A DNA stretch of 64,000 bases from a virus (IMGVR_UViG_3300046008_000478:1-64000), one strand, 5' to 3'; counted from the first letter of the stretch, positions 23,623 to 33,008 are shown. Numbers and translations: made by a program. Notes: generated by a model not told the origin, from the letters alone.

Positions 23623-24201
23623 ATGGCTACCACGCAAGAACAATTGGACCAGGATAAGGCTGAGTTTGACGCTGAGTTCGCAAATGACGCACTGGAAGAG
23701 GCGAACAACCGCGAGCAAGACGACCAGGAAGATGCCGAGGATGATGCGGAAGACGGCCGTGTCGCAGCCAAGGATTCCATGGGTGGAGGCGAGTCGATCG
23801 AAGGATCTGATGACGCCGCAGATAGTGATGAGGTCGCGCAGCCAGCAGTGAATGCTGTGATTGCTTCGGCCCGCATGGCAGGCGATGAGCAGTCCAAAGC
23901 TTTCACCGAGGCATTCAAGTCTGAGGCCCCAATGCTGCCTGAGCCCAAGGCGCCAACATTCAAAGAGGCCTTTGCTTCAGCACGCAAGGGCGGCGAGAAG
24001 GTTTTCGAGTGGCAAGGCAAGAAGTACACCACCGAGATGGCCAAGCCCAAAGCTGCGCCAGTAGTGGCCGCCAAGATGGATGGCCCGGCGCATGAGACTG
24101 CAGCCGTTGTTGCTAAGCCCGCTCAAGGCGACCTCAAAGGTGCATCAAGCCTGGCTGAAGCCATGGCCGGCGCCAAGCACACGGGCATGGGCAGCAAATG
24201 A
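23623..24201 (+). CDS. Acidic hypothetical protein
   Basis: TFKEAFASARKGGEKVFEWQGKKYTT motif recurrent in phage proteins; TAAGGA RBS. Confidence 0.65.
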   Translation: MATTQEQLDQDKAEFDAEFANDALEEANNREQDDQEDAEDDAEDGRVAAKDSMGGGESIEGSDDAADSDEVAQPAVNAVIASARMAGDEQSKAFTEAFKSEAPMLPEPKAPTFKEAFASARKGGEKVFEWQGKKYTTEMAKPKAAPVVAAKMDGPAHETAAVVAKPAQGDLKGASSLAEAMAGAKHTGMGSK

Positions 24202-26525
24202 GCGAAGATCTGCAGTACGCGCTGGCAGCCAAGGAGGCGTTCGCCAATGATGGGGAGCAAGTCGTCCTGGGCGCCTTGGGAGCGCGGCTGCTGATGGAGT
24301 TCGCCAAGGCGGAGTCTGACCGCCGGTTGACCGAGGAGCGCTGGCTCAGCGACTTGCGTCAGTACCGCGGCCAATATGACCCCGAAGTGCTCGCCGCTAT
24401 CGGCTTGAAGCGCTCGCGTGCGTTTGTTCGCAAGACCCGCGTCAAGGTCAAGACAGTCAACAGCCGGGTGGAGGACTTGTTGTTCCCATCGGGCAGCGAA
24501 AAGAACTGGGAAATCGGCAGCAGCCCCGTGCCAAGCGTGTCCAAAGAGGAGCGCAACGCAGTAGGGCGCAACTTGATGCAGATGGCCGAGCAGGCCGCGC
24601 AACAGGCTATTGCCCAGGCGCAAGCCCAGGGTCAGCAGTTGCCACCACAACAGCCCGCCAAGATCACCAAAGACATGGTGGACAAGGCTGTGGCTGCGAT
24701 CTGCAAAGAGTCCGCCAAGAAGATGGCCAAGGTCATCGATGACCAGCTGACTGAGGTGCGTTACAAGGCGACTTGCAAGCAGGCGATTCACTCCGCCCAC
24801 CTGTACGGCACTGGGATCATCAAGGGCCCGCTGGTCGAGCGCCGGGTGCGCTCCAAGTACCAGAACGTGAATGGCAAGTGGGTTGAGAAGAGTGAGACCT
24901 ACGTGGTCCCGTTCGTGGACTACGTGCCAATCTGGCGCTTCTACCCTGACATGTCAGCAGACACGCTGGACAAGTGCCGCTACGTTTACGAGCGCCACCA
25001 GATGACGCATGCCGATCTGGCTGAGTTGGCTGAGCGCAAGTCGTTCAACAAGACGCAGATCATTGAGTACCTGAAGTCCAATCCCAATGGTCAGGTGACG
25101 ATCAAGTACATCGACAACCAGCTCAAGATCATTGGCGATCGCAATGCCAACCAGGGCGCAGTGGATGGCCGCTACGAGGTGCTGGAGCGATGGGGTTGGC
25201 TGACTGGCAAGGATCTGCACGATGTTGGCGTGAAGGTCGATGAGGCTCGCCACCATGAGAGTTTCTTTGGTAACGTGTGGATCCTGCCCAATGGCTCCGT
25301 GATCAAGGCTGTCTTGCAGCCTATCAATGGCGTGACCTGGCCGTACCACATGTACTACTTCGACAAGGATGAGACGAACATCTTTGGCGATGGCTTGGGT
25401 ACTGTGCTGCGTGACGACCAGACCATGCTGAATGCAGCGACCCGGCTGATGCTGGACAACGCGGCGATCTCCTCCGGTCCCATGATCGAGGTGGCCACCG
25501 GGCTGCTGAGCCGCCTGGATTCCGGCACTGAGATTGAGCCATGGAAAGTGTTCTACCGCAACGCAACTGCACCCGGAACACCCGCGGTGCGCGCCATCGA
25601 GCTGCCCACGCGGCTGGGTGACTTGTCTGGCCTGGCTGACCGCTTCGAGAACAATGCCGATGAGGTGTCGGCTGTGCCGCGCTACATGTCAGGCGAGAAC
25701 ATGAACAATGGCGCCGCGGCGACCAAGGGCGGCCTGTCCATGCTGATGGGTGCTGCCAACATCATGATCAAGGATTTGATCAGCTCCTGGGATGAGGGTG
25801 TGACCCGGCCGTTCATTGCGGCGCTGTACCGCTGGAACATGCAGTTCAACCCGGACAATTCGATCAAGGGTGACTACGACGTGAAGGCGCGTGGATCTGC
25901 AAGCCTGGTGGCGCGCGAGGTGCGTGCAGCCCAGCTGGATAACTTCTCCCAAATGACGGCCAATCCATTGGATGCGCCATTCATCAAGCGTGATGCATTG
26001 CTGCGCCAGCGGGCTGAAGCCAATGAGCTGAGCGACGTGGTGAAGACCGAAGACGAGGTCATGGCCGAGCAAAATAACCAACTGGCAGCAGCTCAGTCGC
26101 AGCTCCAGCAGGCGCAGCAAAAACTGATGCTTGATGAGCTGACGCAAAAGGTAGCCTTGCTGACCGCCAACGCAGCCAAGGCCATGGCCGAGGTCGAACT
26201 GATTCGTGCCAAAGTGGTCGAGACCAAGGTGGCCGGCGTCTACGCTGCGCTGCAGGCAGGCGGTGTTGCCACTGGCAGCCCACACATTGCTCCAGCCGGT
26301 GATGAGATTCTGCGCAGCTCAGGCTGGGTGGATGCAACACCGGACCCAACGATTGCCCAGCTGGCTGGTCCACAGGTGCAAGGTCAACAGATGCCGCAGG
26401 ATGGAAACCCCATGCTGCCTGACCAGGCCAATGTACCAGCCATGGAGCAACCTCAAACGCCCAACCTGCAGCCGCAGACTGGTGGAGTTGGCTTGCATGC
26501 CGGCATTGAGACGCAGGAAGTCTGA
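24198..26525 (+). CDS. Portal protein
   Basis: 775 aa; YGTGIIKGP, FYPD, G.G....RDDQ..LNA..R..LDNA..S.GP; position after terL. Confidence 0.88.
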   Translation: MSEDLQYALAAKEAFANDGEQVVLGALGARLLMEFAKAESDRRLTEERWLSDLRQYRGQYDPEVLAAIGLKRSRAFVRKTRVKVKTVNSRVEDLLFPSGSEKNWEIGSSPVPSVSKEERNAVGRNLMQMAEQAAQQAIAQAQAQGQQLPPQQPAKITKDMVDKAVAAICKESAKKMAKVIDDQLTEVRYKATCKQAIHSAHLYGTGIIKGPLVERRVRSKYQNVNGKWVEKSETYVVPFVDYVPIWRFYPDMSADTLDKCRYVYERHQMTHADLAELAERKSFNKTQIIEYLKSNPNGQVTIKYIDNQLKIIGDRNANQGAVDGRYEVLERWGWLTGKDLHDVGVKVDEARHHESFFGNVWILPNGSVIKAVLQPINGVTWPYHMYYFDKDETNIFGDGLGTVLRDDQTMLNAATRLMLDNAAISSGPMIEVATGLLSRLDSGTEIEPWKVFYRNATAPGTPAVRAIELPTRLGDLSGLADRFENNADEVSAVPRYMSGENMNNGAAATKGGLSMLMGAANIMIKDLISSWDEGVTRPFIAALYRWNMQFNPDNSIKGDYDVKARGSASLVAREVRAAQLDNFSQMTANPLDAPFIKRDALLRQRAEANELSDVVKTEDEVMAEQNNQLAAAQSQLQQAQQKLMLDELTQKVALLTANAAKAMAEVELIRAKVVETKVAGVYAALQAGGVATGSPHIAPAGDEILRSSGWVDATPDPTIAQLAGPQVQGQQMPQDGNPMLPDQANVPAMEQPQTPNLQPQTGGVGLHAGIETQEV

Positions 26526-26785: not shown

Positions 26786-27019
26786 ATGAGCGACGCAACA
26801 CTGATTCCATCCAACTACGCCAACGTGACACCTAGCAATACAACACCCGTGAGCGCGAGCCTGGGCTTATACATCGGGGTCTCTGGATCGGTTGTGGTGA
26901 TGGGTGCTAATGGCGTCCAGGCGACCTTCCAGGCGCTTGCTGGGCAATACCTGAGTGGCAAGTTCTACAAGGTAATGGCGGCCACCACGGCGTCATCCAT
27001 CGTGGCTCTTTACGCCTGA
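26786..27019 (+). CDS. Small virion protein (spike/fibre base-like)
   Basis: VTPSN...LYIGVSG.V.V...KVMA..T.A..IVALY. Confidence 0.65.
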   Translation: MSDATLIPSNYANVTPSNTTPVSASLGLYIGVSGSVVVMGANGVQATFQALAGQYLSGKFYKVMAATTASSIVALYA

Positions 27020-27021
27020 TC

Positions 27022-28686
27022 ATGCGCGGACTCGGACTCTCTGTTGCTGGGTTGGCATCTCGGTCATTGACCCAGATCCAGCAAGCCATCTCCCTCCTAC
27101 GCACCTACGGCACCAACGCCAATGCATTCGTACCGGGCGTTGGCTGGCTGAACGGCCTCCAAGCTGCTAACTACCTAGACAGCGCAGGCACAACGCCCGG
27201 CACAGTGGATCAGCCTGTTGGGTTGGTGCTGGATGCGGAGGGGGTGATGGGGGTGGAGTTGGTTACGAATGGTGACTTTAGTGCGGGGGCTACGGGGTGG
27301 ACTGCTGGCGGTTCTGATAGCAGTTTTACTGGCGGTGTGGCTACCTTGCCCACAGGCAACACAAGCAAAGCGCAGACATCGGCGGGAATTACAGTAGCCG
27401 GGAAAACATACCGAGTTCGGTACGATGTCTTAACTACGAATGGTGGGTCACTGGCTCCTTATTTTGGAGGAGTAACACAAAACCCTTACTGGGATGCAAC
27501 CAGCCCCGCAGGAACGCGAGAGTTCACAGCGTTGTGTACGGCAACCGGGCAATTCTCTATGGTGTCGTTTGGTTTCGTAGGCACCATCGACAACGTCAGC
27601 GTCCGCGAGATCACCGGCATCCACGCAAGTCAGAGTACGACGCCATCGAAACCCGTGCTGCGGCGCGGGGCTGTGAATCTGCTGCCGTATTCACAGGCTA
27701 ATTCAAACTGGGTTTCTGACGCTGCATCTACTGTTGTTACGGACAATAGCGCGGTGGGCGTACAAGGTGCGGCAACAGCATCTACTTTCACAATTACAGG
27801 CGCTGGATATAAGTACGGGGCAGCAGCAGCAAACACAAGCCTAGTTATGACGGGGTGCGCTTGGATTAAAGGCGCATCAGGGACAGTTGCTTTGCGACTC
27901 GCCTCAAACGGCTCTGCGGAAACCGCAAGCACAGTGGTGACGCTAACTGGGGAATGGCAGTTTGTGGTGGTACAGCTAACATCAACAGGTGCCCCCGGCA
28001 GTTACAAACTTGGGATAGACAATCGCGCACTCGCCGGGGCAGACACAATTACTAAAGCGGTAATGCTGGACGGCGCAGCCCTATTCCAAGGCACCTACAC
28101 ATCCTCCCAAATCCAAGCCCTCGGAGGCATCCCGCTGACCACCACAGCACCAGCAAGCACGGCACTTGGCCCGTATTTCTGGCAGTTCGACGGTGTAGAC
28201 GATTCGCTGGCAAACCTATCGACTGCTATTTGCCAGCTTTCTGATGACCACTGCTTCGGCGTGGCGGGTCAGGCTGATTCATCGGCTACAGGGGTATTTC
28301 TCAGTCAGAACGGATCAGCCAACTCTCGATTGCAGCTTTATCAATCCGGCACAAACCTCGTTATGGATTGGGCTGATGATGCGGCGGTGACGGTAAACAA
28401 GACAATTGCAAATGCTGTTGGCTCTAAATTCGTCGCATCCGTTCGGTCTATTGGCGGGAATAAGACGCTTTCCTTGGATTCTGTTGTTAGCGGGATAACG
28501 TCCACAGCGCAAGGCACCGGAACTTTCACCGACTTTAAGTTGGGTGCAAACGGTGTTGGCGTGTCGAGTGCAAACTTCCAGAAAGGAAGAACATTTGCAG
28601 CCTACGCAATAAAGGGTTCTGTCAGTGATGCTGACCGATTGGTCTTTGACCGACTCCTAGCGTCCCTGCAAGGTCGCACGATATGA
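27022..28686 (+). CDS. Head/tail fibre with carbohydrate-binding and LamG-like modules
   Basis: DQPVGLVLD, ELVTNGDFS, IDNVSVREI, FDGVDD motifs. Confidence 0.7.
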   Translation: MRGLGLSVAGLASRSLTQIQQAISLLRTYGTNANAFVPGVGWLNGLQAANYLDSAGTTPGTVDQPVGLVLDAEGVMGVELVTNGDFSAGATGWTAGGSDSSFTGGVATLPTGNTSKAQTSAGITVAGKTYRVRYDVLTTNGGSLAPYFGGVTQNPYWDATSPAGTREFTALCTATGQFSMVSFGFVGTIDNVSVREITGIHASQSTTPSKPVLRRGAVNLLPYSQANSNWVSDAASTVVTDNSAVGVQGAATASTFTITGAGYKYGAAAANTSLVMTGCAWIKGASGTVALRLASNGSAETASTVVTLTGEWQFVVVQLTSTGAPGSYKLGIDNRALAGADTITKAVMLDGAALFQGTYTSSQIQALGGIPLTTTAPASTALGPYFWQFDGVDDSLANLSTAICQLSDDHCFGVAGQADSSATGVFLSQNGSANSRLQLYQSGTNLVMDWADDAAVTVNKTIANAVGSKFVASVRSIGGNKTLSLDSVVSGITSTAQGTGTFTDFKLGANGVGVSSANFQKGRTFAAYAIKGSVSDADRLVFDRLLASLQGRTI

Positions 28687-28804
28687 CCTACCTAACCCAC
28701 TTCCTAGCCTACACCGTGGGCCTCCTTTGCGGGGTCTGTGGGGTCTTGATGGCAATGGCAAACACCGGGCGCTGCGATAACTGCCCACAGCACAAGGATG
28801 CCCA

Positions 28805-29443
28805 ATGAGCTACGACAACACCCTGACAATCAAGCTGCCTTTCGCACTGGCTGACATTGCTTCGCGCATTGGACCGAAAGGCGGGAAGGTACACGTCAAA
28901 ACCGGACATATTGGAACGAAAGGCCATTCTGGTCCCGTGATTAATGGGCCTAGTGACATTACGGCAGAGCTTGCCAGTAAGGTGTTTTCATACAACCAAG
29001 ATACCGGTGTCATCACCAGAGTAATAGCCATCGGCGGGAAGACGCCCGGAGAAATAACGCAAGTGGACCGCTCTGGCTACATAAAAACATCTTTCATGGG
29101 AGTCCAGTTGCGTGGGCACAGGCTCGCTTGGCTGCTGCACTATGGAGAGTTCCCTGCGGTTGGAATGGAGATTGACCATATCAATCATGACAAGACAGAC
29201 AACAGAATCAAAAACCTGAGGTCTGTCACGAAATCCACAAACCAGCACAACCTATACAAATCAAGACCCCAGAGTAAAACAGGGTTGCTTGGGGTATCGA
29301 AAGCTAACCAGAAGTTTCAAGCGGAGATCGTTGCGCCGGGTAGCAAGAGGAAGTACCTAGGGGTGTTCGATACGCCAGAGCTTGCGCATGAAGCCTATAT
29401 GCAAGCCAAAACAAAATACTACCCCGGAGTGATGACACCATGA
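28805..29443 (+). CDS. HNH(-AP2-like) homing endonuclease fused to a captured host gene start
   Basis: HRLAWLLHYG...IDHINHDKTDNRIKNLR...N, KYLGVFDTPELAHEAY. Confidence 0.9.
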   Translation: MSYDNTLTIKLPFALADIASRIGPKGGKVHVKTGHIGTKGHSGPVINGPSDITAELASKVFSYNQDTGVITRVIAIGGKTPGEITQVDRSGYIKTSFMGVQLRGHRLAWLLHYGEFPAVGMEIDHINHDKTDNRIKNLRSVTKSTNQHNLYKSRPQSKTGLLGVSKANQKFQAEIVAPGSKRKYLGVFDTPELAHEAYMQAKTKYYPGVMTP

Positions 29444-29796
29444 GCGGCTACGACCAAAAATTATCAATAACTCTCCCTGCGGAATTAGCAGATATTGCAT
29501 CCCGTATAGGTAGGGCAATGGATAGTGACGTTGGCGGCGATAAGAGCTTCACCCGCATCGTGACAGGCTATGCGGACGGCAAGCCCGTGTACGGCGACAC
29601 GATCAGCATGACCACGCCGTGCACCAGCACATTCAAAGAGCAAGCCATTGCAATGCTGGCCGACCCTGTGCTGCTGCACTTGGCAGTTGAAGCTGACTAC
29701 GCGGTGCGTTGGGTTGATCTTGTTGCGCCTACGCTTGCTGAGTGCCGAGCGTTTTGTGATGGGGTGATTCCTGAGCCCGTACCAATCAAGCTGTAA
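29440..29796 (+). CDS. Hypothetical fibre-associated protein with recoded N-terminus
   Basis: ATGA-coupled to HNH; first 24 aa paralogous to HNH ORF start. Confidence 0.7.
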   Translation: MSGYDQKLSITLPAELADIASRIGRAMDSDVGGDKSFTRIVTGYADGKPVYGDTISMTTPCTSTFKEQAIAMLADPVLLHLAVEADYAVRWVDLVAPTLAECRAFCDGVIPEPVPIKL

Positions 29797-29814
29797 CCAG
29801 CCACACAACAACAC

Positions 29815-29837
29815 AAGCAGCTTCGGCTGCTTTTTTT
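29815..29837 (+). terminator. Intrinsic terminator
   Basis: AAGCAGC-TTCG-GCTGC-T7. Confidence 0.85.
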
Positions 29838-29921
29838 ACGTCCAGATTCTTAGCCCCTGGGAAACCAGGACAGTTCAGAGCCCAGTTCGCTGGCTCTTCA
29901 AAGCCCGTGAAGGAAAACACC

Positions 29922-30905
29922 ATGGCAACGTCCCCCGAAAAAGCACAACAAGACCAGCAAGACTTCGCGTCTGCTTACAACGAGGAGCAGTCCGCTGCAC
30001 CGCAACAGACCGAGGACGAAGCATTCGGCATTGAGCCTGAAGCGCATGAGACCCTGGTCGAAGAGGAGGCAGAGCCAATGGACGCGTCTGCCGCAGAAGG
30101 CGGAGCTGAAGGCCAGGCCGGCAACGACGACCAGGGATCTGCGCCAGCATTGGTGGTGATCGAGCCAGGCGCCACCGATAGCAGTGATGTGCAGGAAGAA
30201 GATCCCAAAGACATCCAGCGCCAGAAGTCCTGGGAAGGCCGCTTGAAGGCCAAAGAGGCTGAGCTCAAGGCGCGCGAGGAGGCTTTGAACGCCCCAGCAG
30301 AATCCACGCAAGAGCCAATGGAGGCGGGCGAGACCGCATCAGAAGAGTCCGCCGAGCCAGCCGTCACCGAAAAGATCGAGGAGACCGTGGAGAAGGTTGC
30401 ATCCGGAGAGATGACGGCCGACGAGGCTATGGCCTCACTGAGCCAGGACTTTGGCGAGGACTTCACCAAGATGCTAAGCCTGTTGATCGAATCCAAGGCC
30501 AGTGAGATCGCCGGCAAGACCGCCGACGAGCGCGTCTCCAAAGTGGGAGGCCAGCTGGACAGCATCGTTAGTGAGATCGTGGACGACAAGTCACGCATGC
30601 ATTACGAGTCCATCGCAGAAGCCCACCCTGACTTCGAGGAAGTAGCCGGTAGCCCCGAGTTCAAAGAGTACATCGACGCTATGGATGAGACGGCCAAAGA
30701 TGCCGCCATGCAAGTCATCGAGCAGGGCAGCTGGCGCCAGATCGTGAAGTTGCTCAACAGCTTCAAGGAAGCCGGCAAGCAACCAGAGCAACAAGACGAG
30801 TCCGGCATGGACGCGGCTGAAGGCGTGCGCTCCAAGGGCGCCCTACAGATCCCTAACAAGCCATCGAACTCCAAGGATTACGAAGAATCCTGGAACGATT
30901 TCTGA
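29922..30905 (+). CDS. Capsid scaffolding protein
   Basis: Highly acidic, KSWEGRLK, IAEAHPDF; directly upstream of major capsid. Confidence 0.75.
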   Translation: MATSPEKAQQDQQDFASAYNEEQSAAPQQTEDEAFGIEPEAHETLVEEEAEPMDASAAEGGAEGQAGNDDQGSAPALVVIEPGATDSSDVQEEDPKDIQRQKSWEGRLKAKEAELKAREEALNAPAESTQEPMEAGETASEESAEPAVTEKIEETVEKVASGEMTADEAMASLSQDFGEDFTKMLSLLIESKASEIAGKTADERVSKVGGQLDSIVSEIVDDKSRMHYESIAEAHPDFEEVAGSPEFKEYIDAMDETAKDAAMQVIEQGSWRQIVKLLNSFKEAGKQPEQQDESGMDAAEGVRSKGALQIPNKPSNSKDYEESWNDF

Positions 30906-32147: not shown

Positions 32148-32195
32148 TTGACCTCTGATGCGTACTCCATGGCACAATGTGCCAAAGGAGTGCGC
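32148..32195 (+). promoter_or_regulatory. RBS-sequestering hairpin and candidate internal promoter for HNH gene
   Basis: GCGTACTCC(32160-68)/GGAGTGCGC(32187-95) plus TGGCAC/GTGCCA; TTGACC-19nt-CACAAT. Confidence 0.6.
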
Positions 32196-32198
32196 ACC

Positions 32199-33008
32199 AT
32201 GCCAATCAAGAAATGCGAGACATGCGGGTCTGAGTTTCAGGCCCGTCTTTCCAAGATCAGAACCTGCAGCACGAAGTGCAGAAACCAACTGATCTCGTCG
32301 GAGCGAGAGCAACGACACAAGGCCACCAAGCAGTGCGTGGTCTGCGAAAAGGAATTTGAAGTTGGTGCCAGTGACTCGAAGAGGCTGACATGCTCAGATG
32401 AATGCGGATACAAACTGCGCGGTTCAAAGACCAGTAGAAGCGTCCGACTTCAGTGTGCTACGTGCAACAAGAGCTTCTTGACAAAACTCTCCCAGCTATC
32501 CCAACCAGGTGGCGGAAAGTATTGTTCTAAGGAATGCATGTACCAGCGCAACTCTAGCGAGACAAATCGAGAGTGCGTGTGCTGCGGGAAGATGTTTACA
32601 TCACCGCCAAGCCAAATGCATGTTGTGACGTGCTCCACAGAGTGTGGGTATGAGTGGTTTTCTGGACCGAGACGTGTTAACTACATAGGCGCCACCAAGC
32701 GAATCATTCGTAAGGATGGGACCAATGGGGTGACATTTACCAGATGGTACTCAGCCAAGAAGAATACGGAACGCCGCGTTAAGACACAAATGGCCACGCC
32801 GCCATGGGCAAATCTTGACGCGATTCGGACTGTGTATGACTTGGCCGCAAAGATGGAGTCCCTAACAGGTCAGCGCTACCACGTTGATCACATCGTTCCG
32901 CTTAACAGTAGGACGGTTTCGGGGCTGCATGTGCACCATAACCTTCAAGTTCTTCCAGCAGTAGACAACCTGCGAAAAGGCAACCGACACTGGCCTGATA
33001 TGCCATAG
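32199..33008 (+). CDS. Free-standing HNH endonuclease with tandem Cys zinc-finger repeats
   Basis: Four CxxC...CSxxC repeats; ATPPWA...YHVDHIVPL...VSGLHV..NLQVL...NLRKGN. Confidence 0.9.
   Translation: MPIKKCETCGSEFQARLSKIRTCSTKCRNQLISSEREQRHKATKQCVVCEKEFEVGASDSKRLTCSDECGYKLRGSKTSRSVRLQCATCNKSFLTKLSQLSQPGGGKYCSKECMYQRNSSETNRECVCCGKMFTSPPSQMHVVTCSTECGYEWFSGPRRVNYIGATKRIIRKDGTNGVTFTRWYSAKKNTERRVKTQMATPPWANLDAIRTVYDLAAKMESLTGQRYHVDHIVPLNSRTVSGLHVHHNLQVLPAVDNLRKGNRHWPDMP

Follow-up and report, generated by a model that had tools for sequence, protein, structure and literature searches.

We suggest that the locus described here is most probably a homing cassette, made up of a start-less HNH endonuclease gene and a replacement for the 5' end of the gene that it invades. 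It lies in the first 64 kb (the window, i.e. the whole stretch of DNA analysed) of a 79-kb IMG/VR virus record with an estimated completeness of 96%. The runs that hold the window are lake-water metagenomes, and run X1 is its probable source sample. The invaded gene, referred to as gene X, is a short phage gene of the head/tail module and is conserved. The start of gene X is present twice, once as an in-frame leader of the nuclease (copy 1) and once, recoded, at the beginning of the restored gene (copy 2). Along the window, the features are:

24198-26525, portal gene of the structural module.
26786-27019, 77-aa ORF that matches phrog_12296 (tail fiber protein).
27022-28686, gene for a 554-aa protein with a conserved N-terminus and a variable C-terminus, directly before the 41-aa ORF.
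28683-28808, plus strand, upstream ORF of 41 aa, ATGA-coupled to the captured start and part of the proposed left homology arm.
28794-28798, plus strand, AAGGA Shine-Dalgarno-like motif, the ribosome-binding site (RBS) of resident gene X, 6 nt 5' of the captured ATG.
28805-29443, plus strand, complete HNH ORF of 212 aa, whose first 23 codons are gene X codons.
28805-28873, plus strand, copy 1, resident gene X codons 1-23 as in-frame HNH leader, MSYDNTLTIKLPFALADIASRIG; 91% nucleotide identity to HNH-less alleles.
28874-29443, plus strand, HNH endonuclease body, residues 24-212 and stop (HNH_3, phrog_99).
29426-29429, plus strand, GGAG Shine-Dalgarno-like motif within the HNH 3' end, 10 nt 5' of the restored gene X start.
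29440-29796, plus strand, gene X, an ORF of 118 aa whose ATG overlaps the HNH stop (ATGA).
29440-29511, plus strand, copy 2, element-borne recoded gene X codons 1-24, MSGYDQKLSITLPAELADIASRIG; 81% nucleotide identity to copy 2 of L004, the other occupied locus.
29512-29538, plus strand, extension of the element segment, codons 25-33, RAMDSDVGG for RALDPDVGG; candidate core of the nuclease target.
29539-29796, plus strand, resident gene X body, codons 34-118 and stop, a mosaic of HNH-less alleles.
29815-29839, plus strand, intrinsic-terminator-like hairpin and T run, closing the operon 3' of gene X.
3' of the terminator, genes for an acidic scaffold-like protein and then the major capsid protein, in the structural module.

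The coordinates, the two sequences, the ATGA overlap and the spelling of the shared peptide LADIASRIG, which differs synonymously in eight of its nine codons between the copies, had been given in an earlier sequence-only reading of this DNA, and all are exact. A profile of 27 gene X homologues matches the HNH N-terminus with E = 4e-7. Together with the 91% DNA identity of copy 1 to HNH-less 5' ends, this shows that the similarity between copy 1 and gene X is not due to chance. The longest exact run common to the two copies is 8 nt, so a deletion of the HNH gene by recombination between the repeats is unlikely.

In its codon usage, copy 2 has a GC3 of 0.33, compared with 0.65 for copy 1, 0.66 for the remaining gene X and 0.68-0.75 for the structural genes, and it contains the rare codons TTA and ATA twice each. 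It had been described as AT-rich like the HNH gene, which is correct only in part, as the HNH body has a GC3 of 0.56 (CAI-like index 0.50). Copy 2 is only 55-64% identical to HNH-less alleles at the nucleotide level, and its protein differs too, by one extra residue and the changes L to M and P to S. Among codons for the same amino acid, 65-77% differ from HNH-less alleles in codons 1-34, versus mostly 30-38%, and at most 55% (L119), in the rest of the gene (one-sided Fisher p from 4e-4 to 0.09, depending on the pair). In most comparisons between two HNH-less alleles the trend is reversed. The empty alleles L003, L005, L006, L008 and L119 differ synonymously by 10-45% in codons 1-34 versus 30-59% in the rest of the gene, and the lower value at the 5' end holds for most comparisons, but not for those with L120. 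This conservation in the empty alleles could come from a constraint on the translation start or the RNA, or from frequent exchange there. A sigma-70-like match at 29432-29461, within the AT-rich copy 2, was rejected, as one site was found and 2.3 are expected by chance.

About 75 distinct gene X loci were collected from viral and metagenome contigs, and only two of them are occupied by an upstream in-frame HNH gene. In the close clade formed by L002, L003, L005-L008 and L119 there is a single gene, MSYDNTLTIKLPFALADIASRIG-RALDPDVGG, whose start is exactly copy 1 (23/23 residues, 89-91% of the DNA). An HNH-less single gene of this kind had been predicted, and its first 23 codons do match copy 1; however, it continues with RALDPDVGG and not, as had been expected, with RAMD. 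The stretch 28677-28872 of the window, i.e. the small ORF, the AAGGA RBS and the 23 codons, is colinear with the close clade at 85-91%, and together with 29488-29787 it is colinear with the single-gene loci L002, L005, L006 and L008. Homology to the empty loci stops at 28872/28873 and restarts at 29488. The 41-aa ORF is colinear with HNH-less L003, L005, L006 and L008 at 85-91% identity and runs on into copy 1, and the context cacAAGGAtg also precedes gene X in HNH-less L002, L005, L006, L008, L119 and L120. The presence or absence of the HNH gene is thus polymorphic at one locus among related genomes.

Both forms are found in run X1. An HNH-less contig with a depth of 457 runs with the window as far as 28872, where it diverges into CAGAGCTTTAGACCCGGACGTTGGTGGTGA, which encodes RALDPDVGG; it occurs alongside an HNH-carrying contig with a depth of 385. 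An L004-type contig is present there too, and the empty contig recurs in run X5. The co-occurring empty allele in X1 is 89%, not 99%, identical to the window, and no isogenic HNH-less twin of the window phage was found among the about 75 gene X loci and the run contigs. As several related strains with this region exist in the source sample, the arrangement might be thought to be a metagenomic assembly chimera of two related phages, joined at their shared gene X 5' sequence, but this is close to impossible. A contig of 1972 nt in X2, from another run and another study, spans 27800-29607 with both junctions and zero mismatches, which excludes an assembly artefact, and a contig of 1649 nt in X1 covers 28129-29777. 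Further, the same design is present in L004, in three contigs, and in independent proteins from other sources, and an in-frame HNH fusion is not expected from a chimera.

In INPHARED, neither megablast of 27800-30600 nor tblastn of gene X gave a match, and gene X was absent from the bacterial and archaeal species genomes searched, which give no prophage or host lead. Two small ORFs sit exactly at the ATGA junctions of other loci: one of 69 aa between the 41-aa ORF and gene X in L003 (L003:4789-4998), and an unrelated one of 65 aa between the 41-aa ORF and copy 1 in L004 (L004:4118-4315). The bases just 5' of the gene X start are therefore a point of repeated insertion and mosaicism. In L121 and L122, a protein of 306 aa with two tandem HNH-family matches is encoded upstream of gene X on the minus strand (1369-2286 and 512-1429 on the reverse complement).

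The nuclease belongs to the HNH_3 family (Pfam: PF13392), with 65.3 bits against a cut-off of 24.8 (E = 3.7e-18) at residues 105-147, about 29117-29245 of the window, and the ORF matches phrog_99 with E = 8e-48. At the sequence level, D124, H125, N127, N133, N146 and H148 are invariant among the four aligned members of its subfamily, P0028-P0031. An AP2 domain (PF00847) in the C-terminal region is a weak match (17.9 bits), under the cut-off of 33.3; many HNH relatives carry a precomputed PF00847 match. The arrangement is free of introns, as had been proposed, since no Rfam intron family matches 28300-30100 at E <= 1 and a Pfam search of the HNH ORF found no Hint (protein-splicing) domain. An Rfam match to snoU105B was discarded as noise (19.6 bits vs a gathering score of 49).

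Rather than being an independent gene with its own start between host genes, the HNH ORF continues the reading frame of 23 resident codons. None of its codons between 2 and 44 is an ATG, GTG or TTG, and the motif TGxIGTKG at residues 33-40 is invariant in the subfamily. Since every internal start codon lies 3' of this motif, the conserved HNH protein can be made only from the captured ATG with its AAGGA. We infer that the nuclease is translated from there. For gene X, the spacing of 10 nt between GGAG and ATG is on the long side, and L004 has GAGG at the same distance from its gene X start. The C-terminal peptides YPGVMTP and YPEAVIA are conserved, each within its own HNH subfamily.

The insertion had been placed at codon 23 of the target gene. 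This agrees with copy 1, which is 23 codons long, but the replacement reaches about codon 33, i.e. about 10 codons past the duplicated part. In the codon alignment, the diverged tract goes past codon 24 and through RAMDSDVGG. Over codons 1-33, copy 2 of the window and copy 2 of L004 are 81-85% identical in nucleotides, and HNH-less alleles are 85-100% identical among themselves. From about codon 34 the window is 88% identical to L002, and over codons 70-90 it is 97% identical to L005; L004 is 98% identical to HNH-less L006 from codon 34-35. The gene X body of the window is thus a mosaic, with parts up to 88-97% identical to HNH-less L002 and L005. The motif GCAATGGATAGTGAYGTNGG is common to the window, L004 and one further locus, L185, only. 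From the extent of this tract it follows that the element removed resident codons 24-33 and supplied its own codons 1-33. The RAMDSDVGG segment is likely the core of the nuclease target.

Gene X gave no match in Pfam and PHROGs, and its AF2 model (pLDDT 87.8) had no match in PDB and BFVD at E <= 0.001 using Foldseek. In this model the duplicated 23 codons encode the strand 6-13 and most of the helix 14-27, and are integral to the fold.

The second occupied locus shows the same design with a different nuclease. At the same place, L004 has an HNH protein of 230 aa, 36% identical to the window HNH, with a different, cysteine-rich N-terminal domain, and joined after resident codon 10 (MSYDNTLTIK|ACTCC). 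This gene is followed by ATGA and by a gene X beginning with MSNYDQKITITLPVALADIASRIGRAMDSDVGG. Given the likeness of copy 2 in the window and in L004 and their unlike fusion points, the right end of the element is shared and the left junction differs.

Further leaders were found in HNH proteins. P0029, P0030, P0149 and P0157 are known as proteins alone, so the comparison covers their leaders. P0029 and P0030 are 70% and 67% identical to the window HNH, which makes them its closest leader-bearing relatives, and start with MYSARFNLTLNDTVKDIAAKVGKG and MPNYSERFTPTLSDTVKEIAAKVG. Their leaders equal the gene X N-termini of HNH-less L188 (24/24 for P0029), L151 and L154, and gene X of the lineage L151/L188/L190 is only 39-42% identical to gene X of the window. 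P0149, of the L004 type, has a leader of 26 gene X codons, ..AAAIGRAL|SKTCTCC, and P0157, also of the L004 type, has a leader of about 22 codons from a very distant allele (cf. L202 and L203). P0031, 74% identical to the window HNH, is without a leader and has its own short start. Scans of viral contigs with the window HNH or the subfamily alignment retrieved only distant HNH genes (<=49% identity), and P0029-P0031 were absent from them.

In total, the leaders of six HNH proteins from two subfamilies correspond to the local gene X allele; they cover at least four lineages and have their junctions at codons 10, 22-24 and 26. Aligned to 103 gene X N-termini these six clear leaders score 51-120, compared with at most 40 for 160 control HNH N-termini. 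The leaders of P0150, P0152, P0154 and P0156 (7-11 residues) are gene X-like but were left uncounted, as they score 30-34 and the control maximum is 40. The junctions cluster at codons 22-26 and at codon 10 or before. Here, we infer that the longer leaders lie near the insertion site and that the shorter ones would have arisen by later in-frame trimming. In the L004-type proteins, the zinc-finger cysteines start right behind the leader.

We suggest the following mechanism. The cassette would have two parts: (i) an ORF for an HNH-AP2-type nuclease without its own start codon or RBS, and (ii) a diverged, rare-codon version of gene X codons 1 to about 33, with its own ATG and with an SD-like motif that lies within the 3' end of the HNH ORF. 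In occupied genomes, the 23 resident codons would act both as the left arm of homology and as a leader from which the nuclease is translated in frame, and gene X would be rebuilt whole from the replacement 5' end through ATGA coupling. In a mixed infection, the nuclease would cut or nick HNH-less gene X near codons ~23-33, at the conserved ..IGRALDPD.., and repair from the occupied allele would copy in both the nuclease and the replacement segment. The spelling of the replacement (LDPD to MDSD, and the synonymous changes) would protect the carrier from its own nuclease. The cleavage site, the specificity and the resistance of the recoded allele are here read from sequence, and the nuclease may cut elsewhere or be inactive.

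It could also be that copy 2 is a naturally diverged foreign allele and not a spelling selected for resistance. An alternative of this kind would be an ordinary free-standing nuclease gene upstream of gene X, with a foreign 5' end of gene X that was co-converted. Copy 1 would then be a scar, without function, from an illegitimate left junction, the fusion would be incidental, and the recoding would be neutral divergence of a distant donor. We consider this improbable, though it does have several observations in its favour. The copy 2 protein differs as well (the extra residue and the two substitutions) and resembles the N-termini of the distant alleles L181, L140 and P0022; co-conversion of flanking markers is standard for the T4 Seg and Mob enzymes (PMC2988022, PMC2790892); and the leader length varies from 7 to 26 codons, as expected for a functionless leader. 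However, the leader has stayed in frame in six or more independent HNH proteins, which belong to two subfamilies. The window has no alternative start before the conserved motif, and in the L004-type proteins the cysteines begin right after the leader. Further, even by the standard of natural alleles a GC3 of 0.33 is unusual: leaving aside a few alleles whose genes are AT-rich over their full length, GC3 as low as in copy 2 recurs only in the AMDSD/AMDYD-bearing alleles L185, L181 and L140.

A mobile cassette also has to be weighed against an old, immobile relic, in which gene X was duplicated in tandem, the first copy was largely overwritten by the HNH gene, and the result was inherited vertically with a nuclease that is possibly domesticated or dead. 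This would fit with the rarity of occupied loci (2 of about 75) and with the lack of an isogenic empty partner among the loci found, but it is very unlikely. Copy 1 and present-day HNH-less alleles share 89-91% identity, and the leader of P0029 is identical to L188 at 24/24 positions; so little divergence between leaders and HNH-less alleles suggests recent insertion or continuing exchange. HNH proteins with 67-70% identity occur in gene X lineages whose own identity is only 39-42%, and the HNH ORF is intact, with D124, H125, N133, N146 and H148 invariant among the four aligned members. Finally, occupied and empty forms occur in one sample, and L185 is a clean footprint allele.

This allele (L185:3001-3100, IMGVR_UViG_3300046028_002821) is an HNH-less gene X with a sharply bounded low-GC3 segment covering its first ~33 codons, and there is no HNH gene within 3 kb. 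Its identity to the sister locus L190 is 88-89% on the upstream side and 82-94% on the downstream side, but only 52-54% over gene X nt 1-100. These 100 nt have a GC3 of 0.25 and one extra residue, and carry GCAATGGATAGTGATGTCGG, which among viral contigs is found only in the window, L004 and L185. L181 and L140 show signs like those of L185, but weaker ones. According to the sequence-only reading, HNH-less relatives should carry neither both copies nor a copy-2-like sequence. No close HNH-less relative with both copies was found; however, the 5' ends of L185 and L181 are copy-2-like. That of L185, a sharply bounded 100-nt replacement in an L190-like locus, is most readily taken as a footprint left by the element, and not as the ancestral state. 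The allele is best read as one that kept the replacement after nuclease loss, or as a donor-type allele, and it is a candidate for a "hit-and-run" resistant allele. In the window, the ATGAGC microhomology at both starts would allow a precise loss of the HNH gene.

It can be speculated further that the two HNH subfamilies form an obligately start-less lineage that lives on the 5' end of one gene, an idea for which the chances are slightly less than even. In such a lineage, in-frame capture of a leader would be needed for expression, the leader would be trimmed from 26 to 23, 10 and 7 codons, and the 33-codon replacement would be re-copied in each host lineage. Loss of the nuclease would leave behind resistant, "vaccinated" alleles, e.g. 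L185. If true, a cycle of invasion, loss and resistance would be readable in the first 100 nt of one gene, as a 5' mirror of the mitochondrial mORF hybrids discussed below.

Parts of this design are known. The closest phage parallel is the MobA/gene 60 cassette, an HNH endonuclease within the T4-type topoisomerase large-subunit gene (Manning & Atkins, bioRxiv 10.1101/2022.08.31.505936, who cite Bonocora et al. as their ref. 19). In both systems the HNH gene lies inside a phage ORF and not between genes. As with MobA, a short target stretch is deleted and the element carries its own diverged replacement (the MobA HomR has 67-81% DNA identity and includes the nick site), the reading frame is kept across the flanking fusions, the replacement is closer to the local clade than to other clades, and nuclease-less "hit-and-run" remnants exist. 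However, the gene split by MobA yields two polypeptides that have gained C- and N-terminal tails, and a 50-nt translational bypass is needed, whereas gene X is a single ORF of 118 aa with no coding gap. The present element is inserted at the very start of its target gene and substitutes a complete 5' end of its own, with ATG and SD. The MobA ORF is also in another frame than its flanking sequences and starts independently, unlike the nuclease here, which is fused to a 23-codon remnant that supplies its start. For MobA, polymorphisms alone did not block nicking (bioRxiv 10.1101/2022.08.31.505936), and immunity of the recoded gene X should therefore not be assumed.

A second parallel is the mobile-ORF (mORF) "gene hybrids" in the mitochondrial genes atp6, atp9, cox2 and nad3 of Allomyces, Glomus, Rhizopus and Mortierella (PMC3630166). 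There too, the mobile unit joins an endonuclease ORF to a terminal host-gene segment of foreign origin, and the native segment persists as a duplicate. The native copies at the mORF sites are 91-98% identical to relatives and the inserted ones 64-81%, with largely synonymous differences (PMC3630166); the corresponding values here are 89-91% and 55-64%. The replacement here is, as a mirror image, at the 5' end and not at the 3' end, and the native remnant is the translational leader of the nuclease, while the mORF remnant is silent and downstream. The mORF enzymes are LAGLIDADG or GIY-YIG proteins of mitochondria, as opposed to an HNH protein of a phage.

Intronless homing is also known from the free-standing T4 enzymes SegB, SegF, SegG and MobE (PMC2988022, PMC2790892, PMC2330249). 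As here, the nuclease genes are present or absent at a fixed locus among genomes, and co-conversion of flanking markers, with a carrier allele that differs from the sensitive one, matches what we propose. However, the Seg and MobE genes either lie between other genes and have starts of their own, or divide the host gene into two functional parts, as the MobE insertion does with nrdA in Aeh1 (PMC3045599). No Seg or Mob gene has been reported to be fused to the start of its target together with a full replacement 5' end. In a limited search of the open-access literature we did not find this layout described in phage papers, and neither Barth et al. 2023 (PMC10448857) nor a survey of Skunavirus HNH genes (PMC12724721) describes it. 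To the best of our knowledge, the 5'-capture layout in a phage is new.

With it, homing endonucleases would have a third means of residing in a coding sequence in the absence of introns and inteins, next to the splitting of the gene (MobA, and MobE in Aeh1) and the replacement of its 3' end (mitochondrial mORFs). Here, the whole 5' end is replaced and the orphaned start is used to express the nuclease. A short N-terminal likeness between an HNH ORF and the next gene could serve as an annotation flag for intragenic homing, and sharply bounded rare-codon 5' segments such as that of L185 could be explained as footprints of past invasions. The locus also offers a natural pair of alleles, in which about 100 nt are either sensitive or recoded, so that target recognition and self-immunity of an HNH-AP2 enzyme would be directly mappable.

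The neighbourhood of the cassette has two other features. The protein encoded before gene X (27022-28686 in the window, and present at nearly all loci) gave no match in Pfam and PHROG searches. Its N-terminus, ..YGT.AHVYLPG.G..NGL.A.NYLDSAGTT.., is conserved, and its middle and its length (294-659 aa) are highly variable, a pattern that resembles receptor-binding or fibre proteins. Directly 3' of the major capsid gene is a nuclease-like gene of 286 aa (32148-33008, plus strand; the TTG start is uncertain). It contains several CxxC pairs and a C-terminal HNH motif, has a GC3 of 0.58, and matches the HNH endonuclease phrog_1271 with E = 5e-20, as well as phrog_26577.
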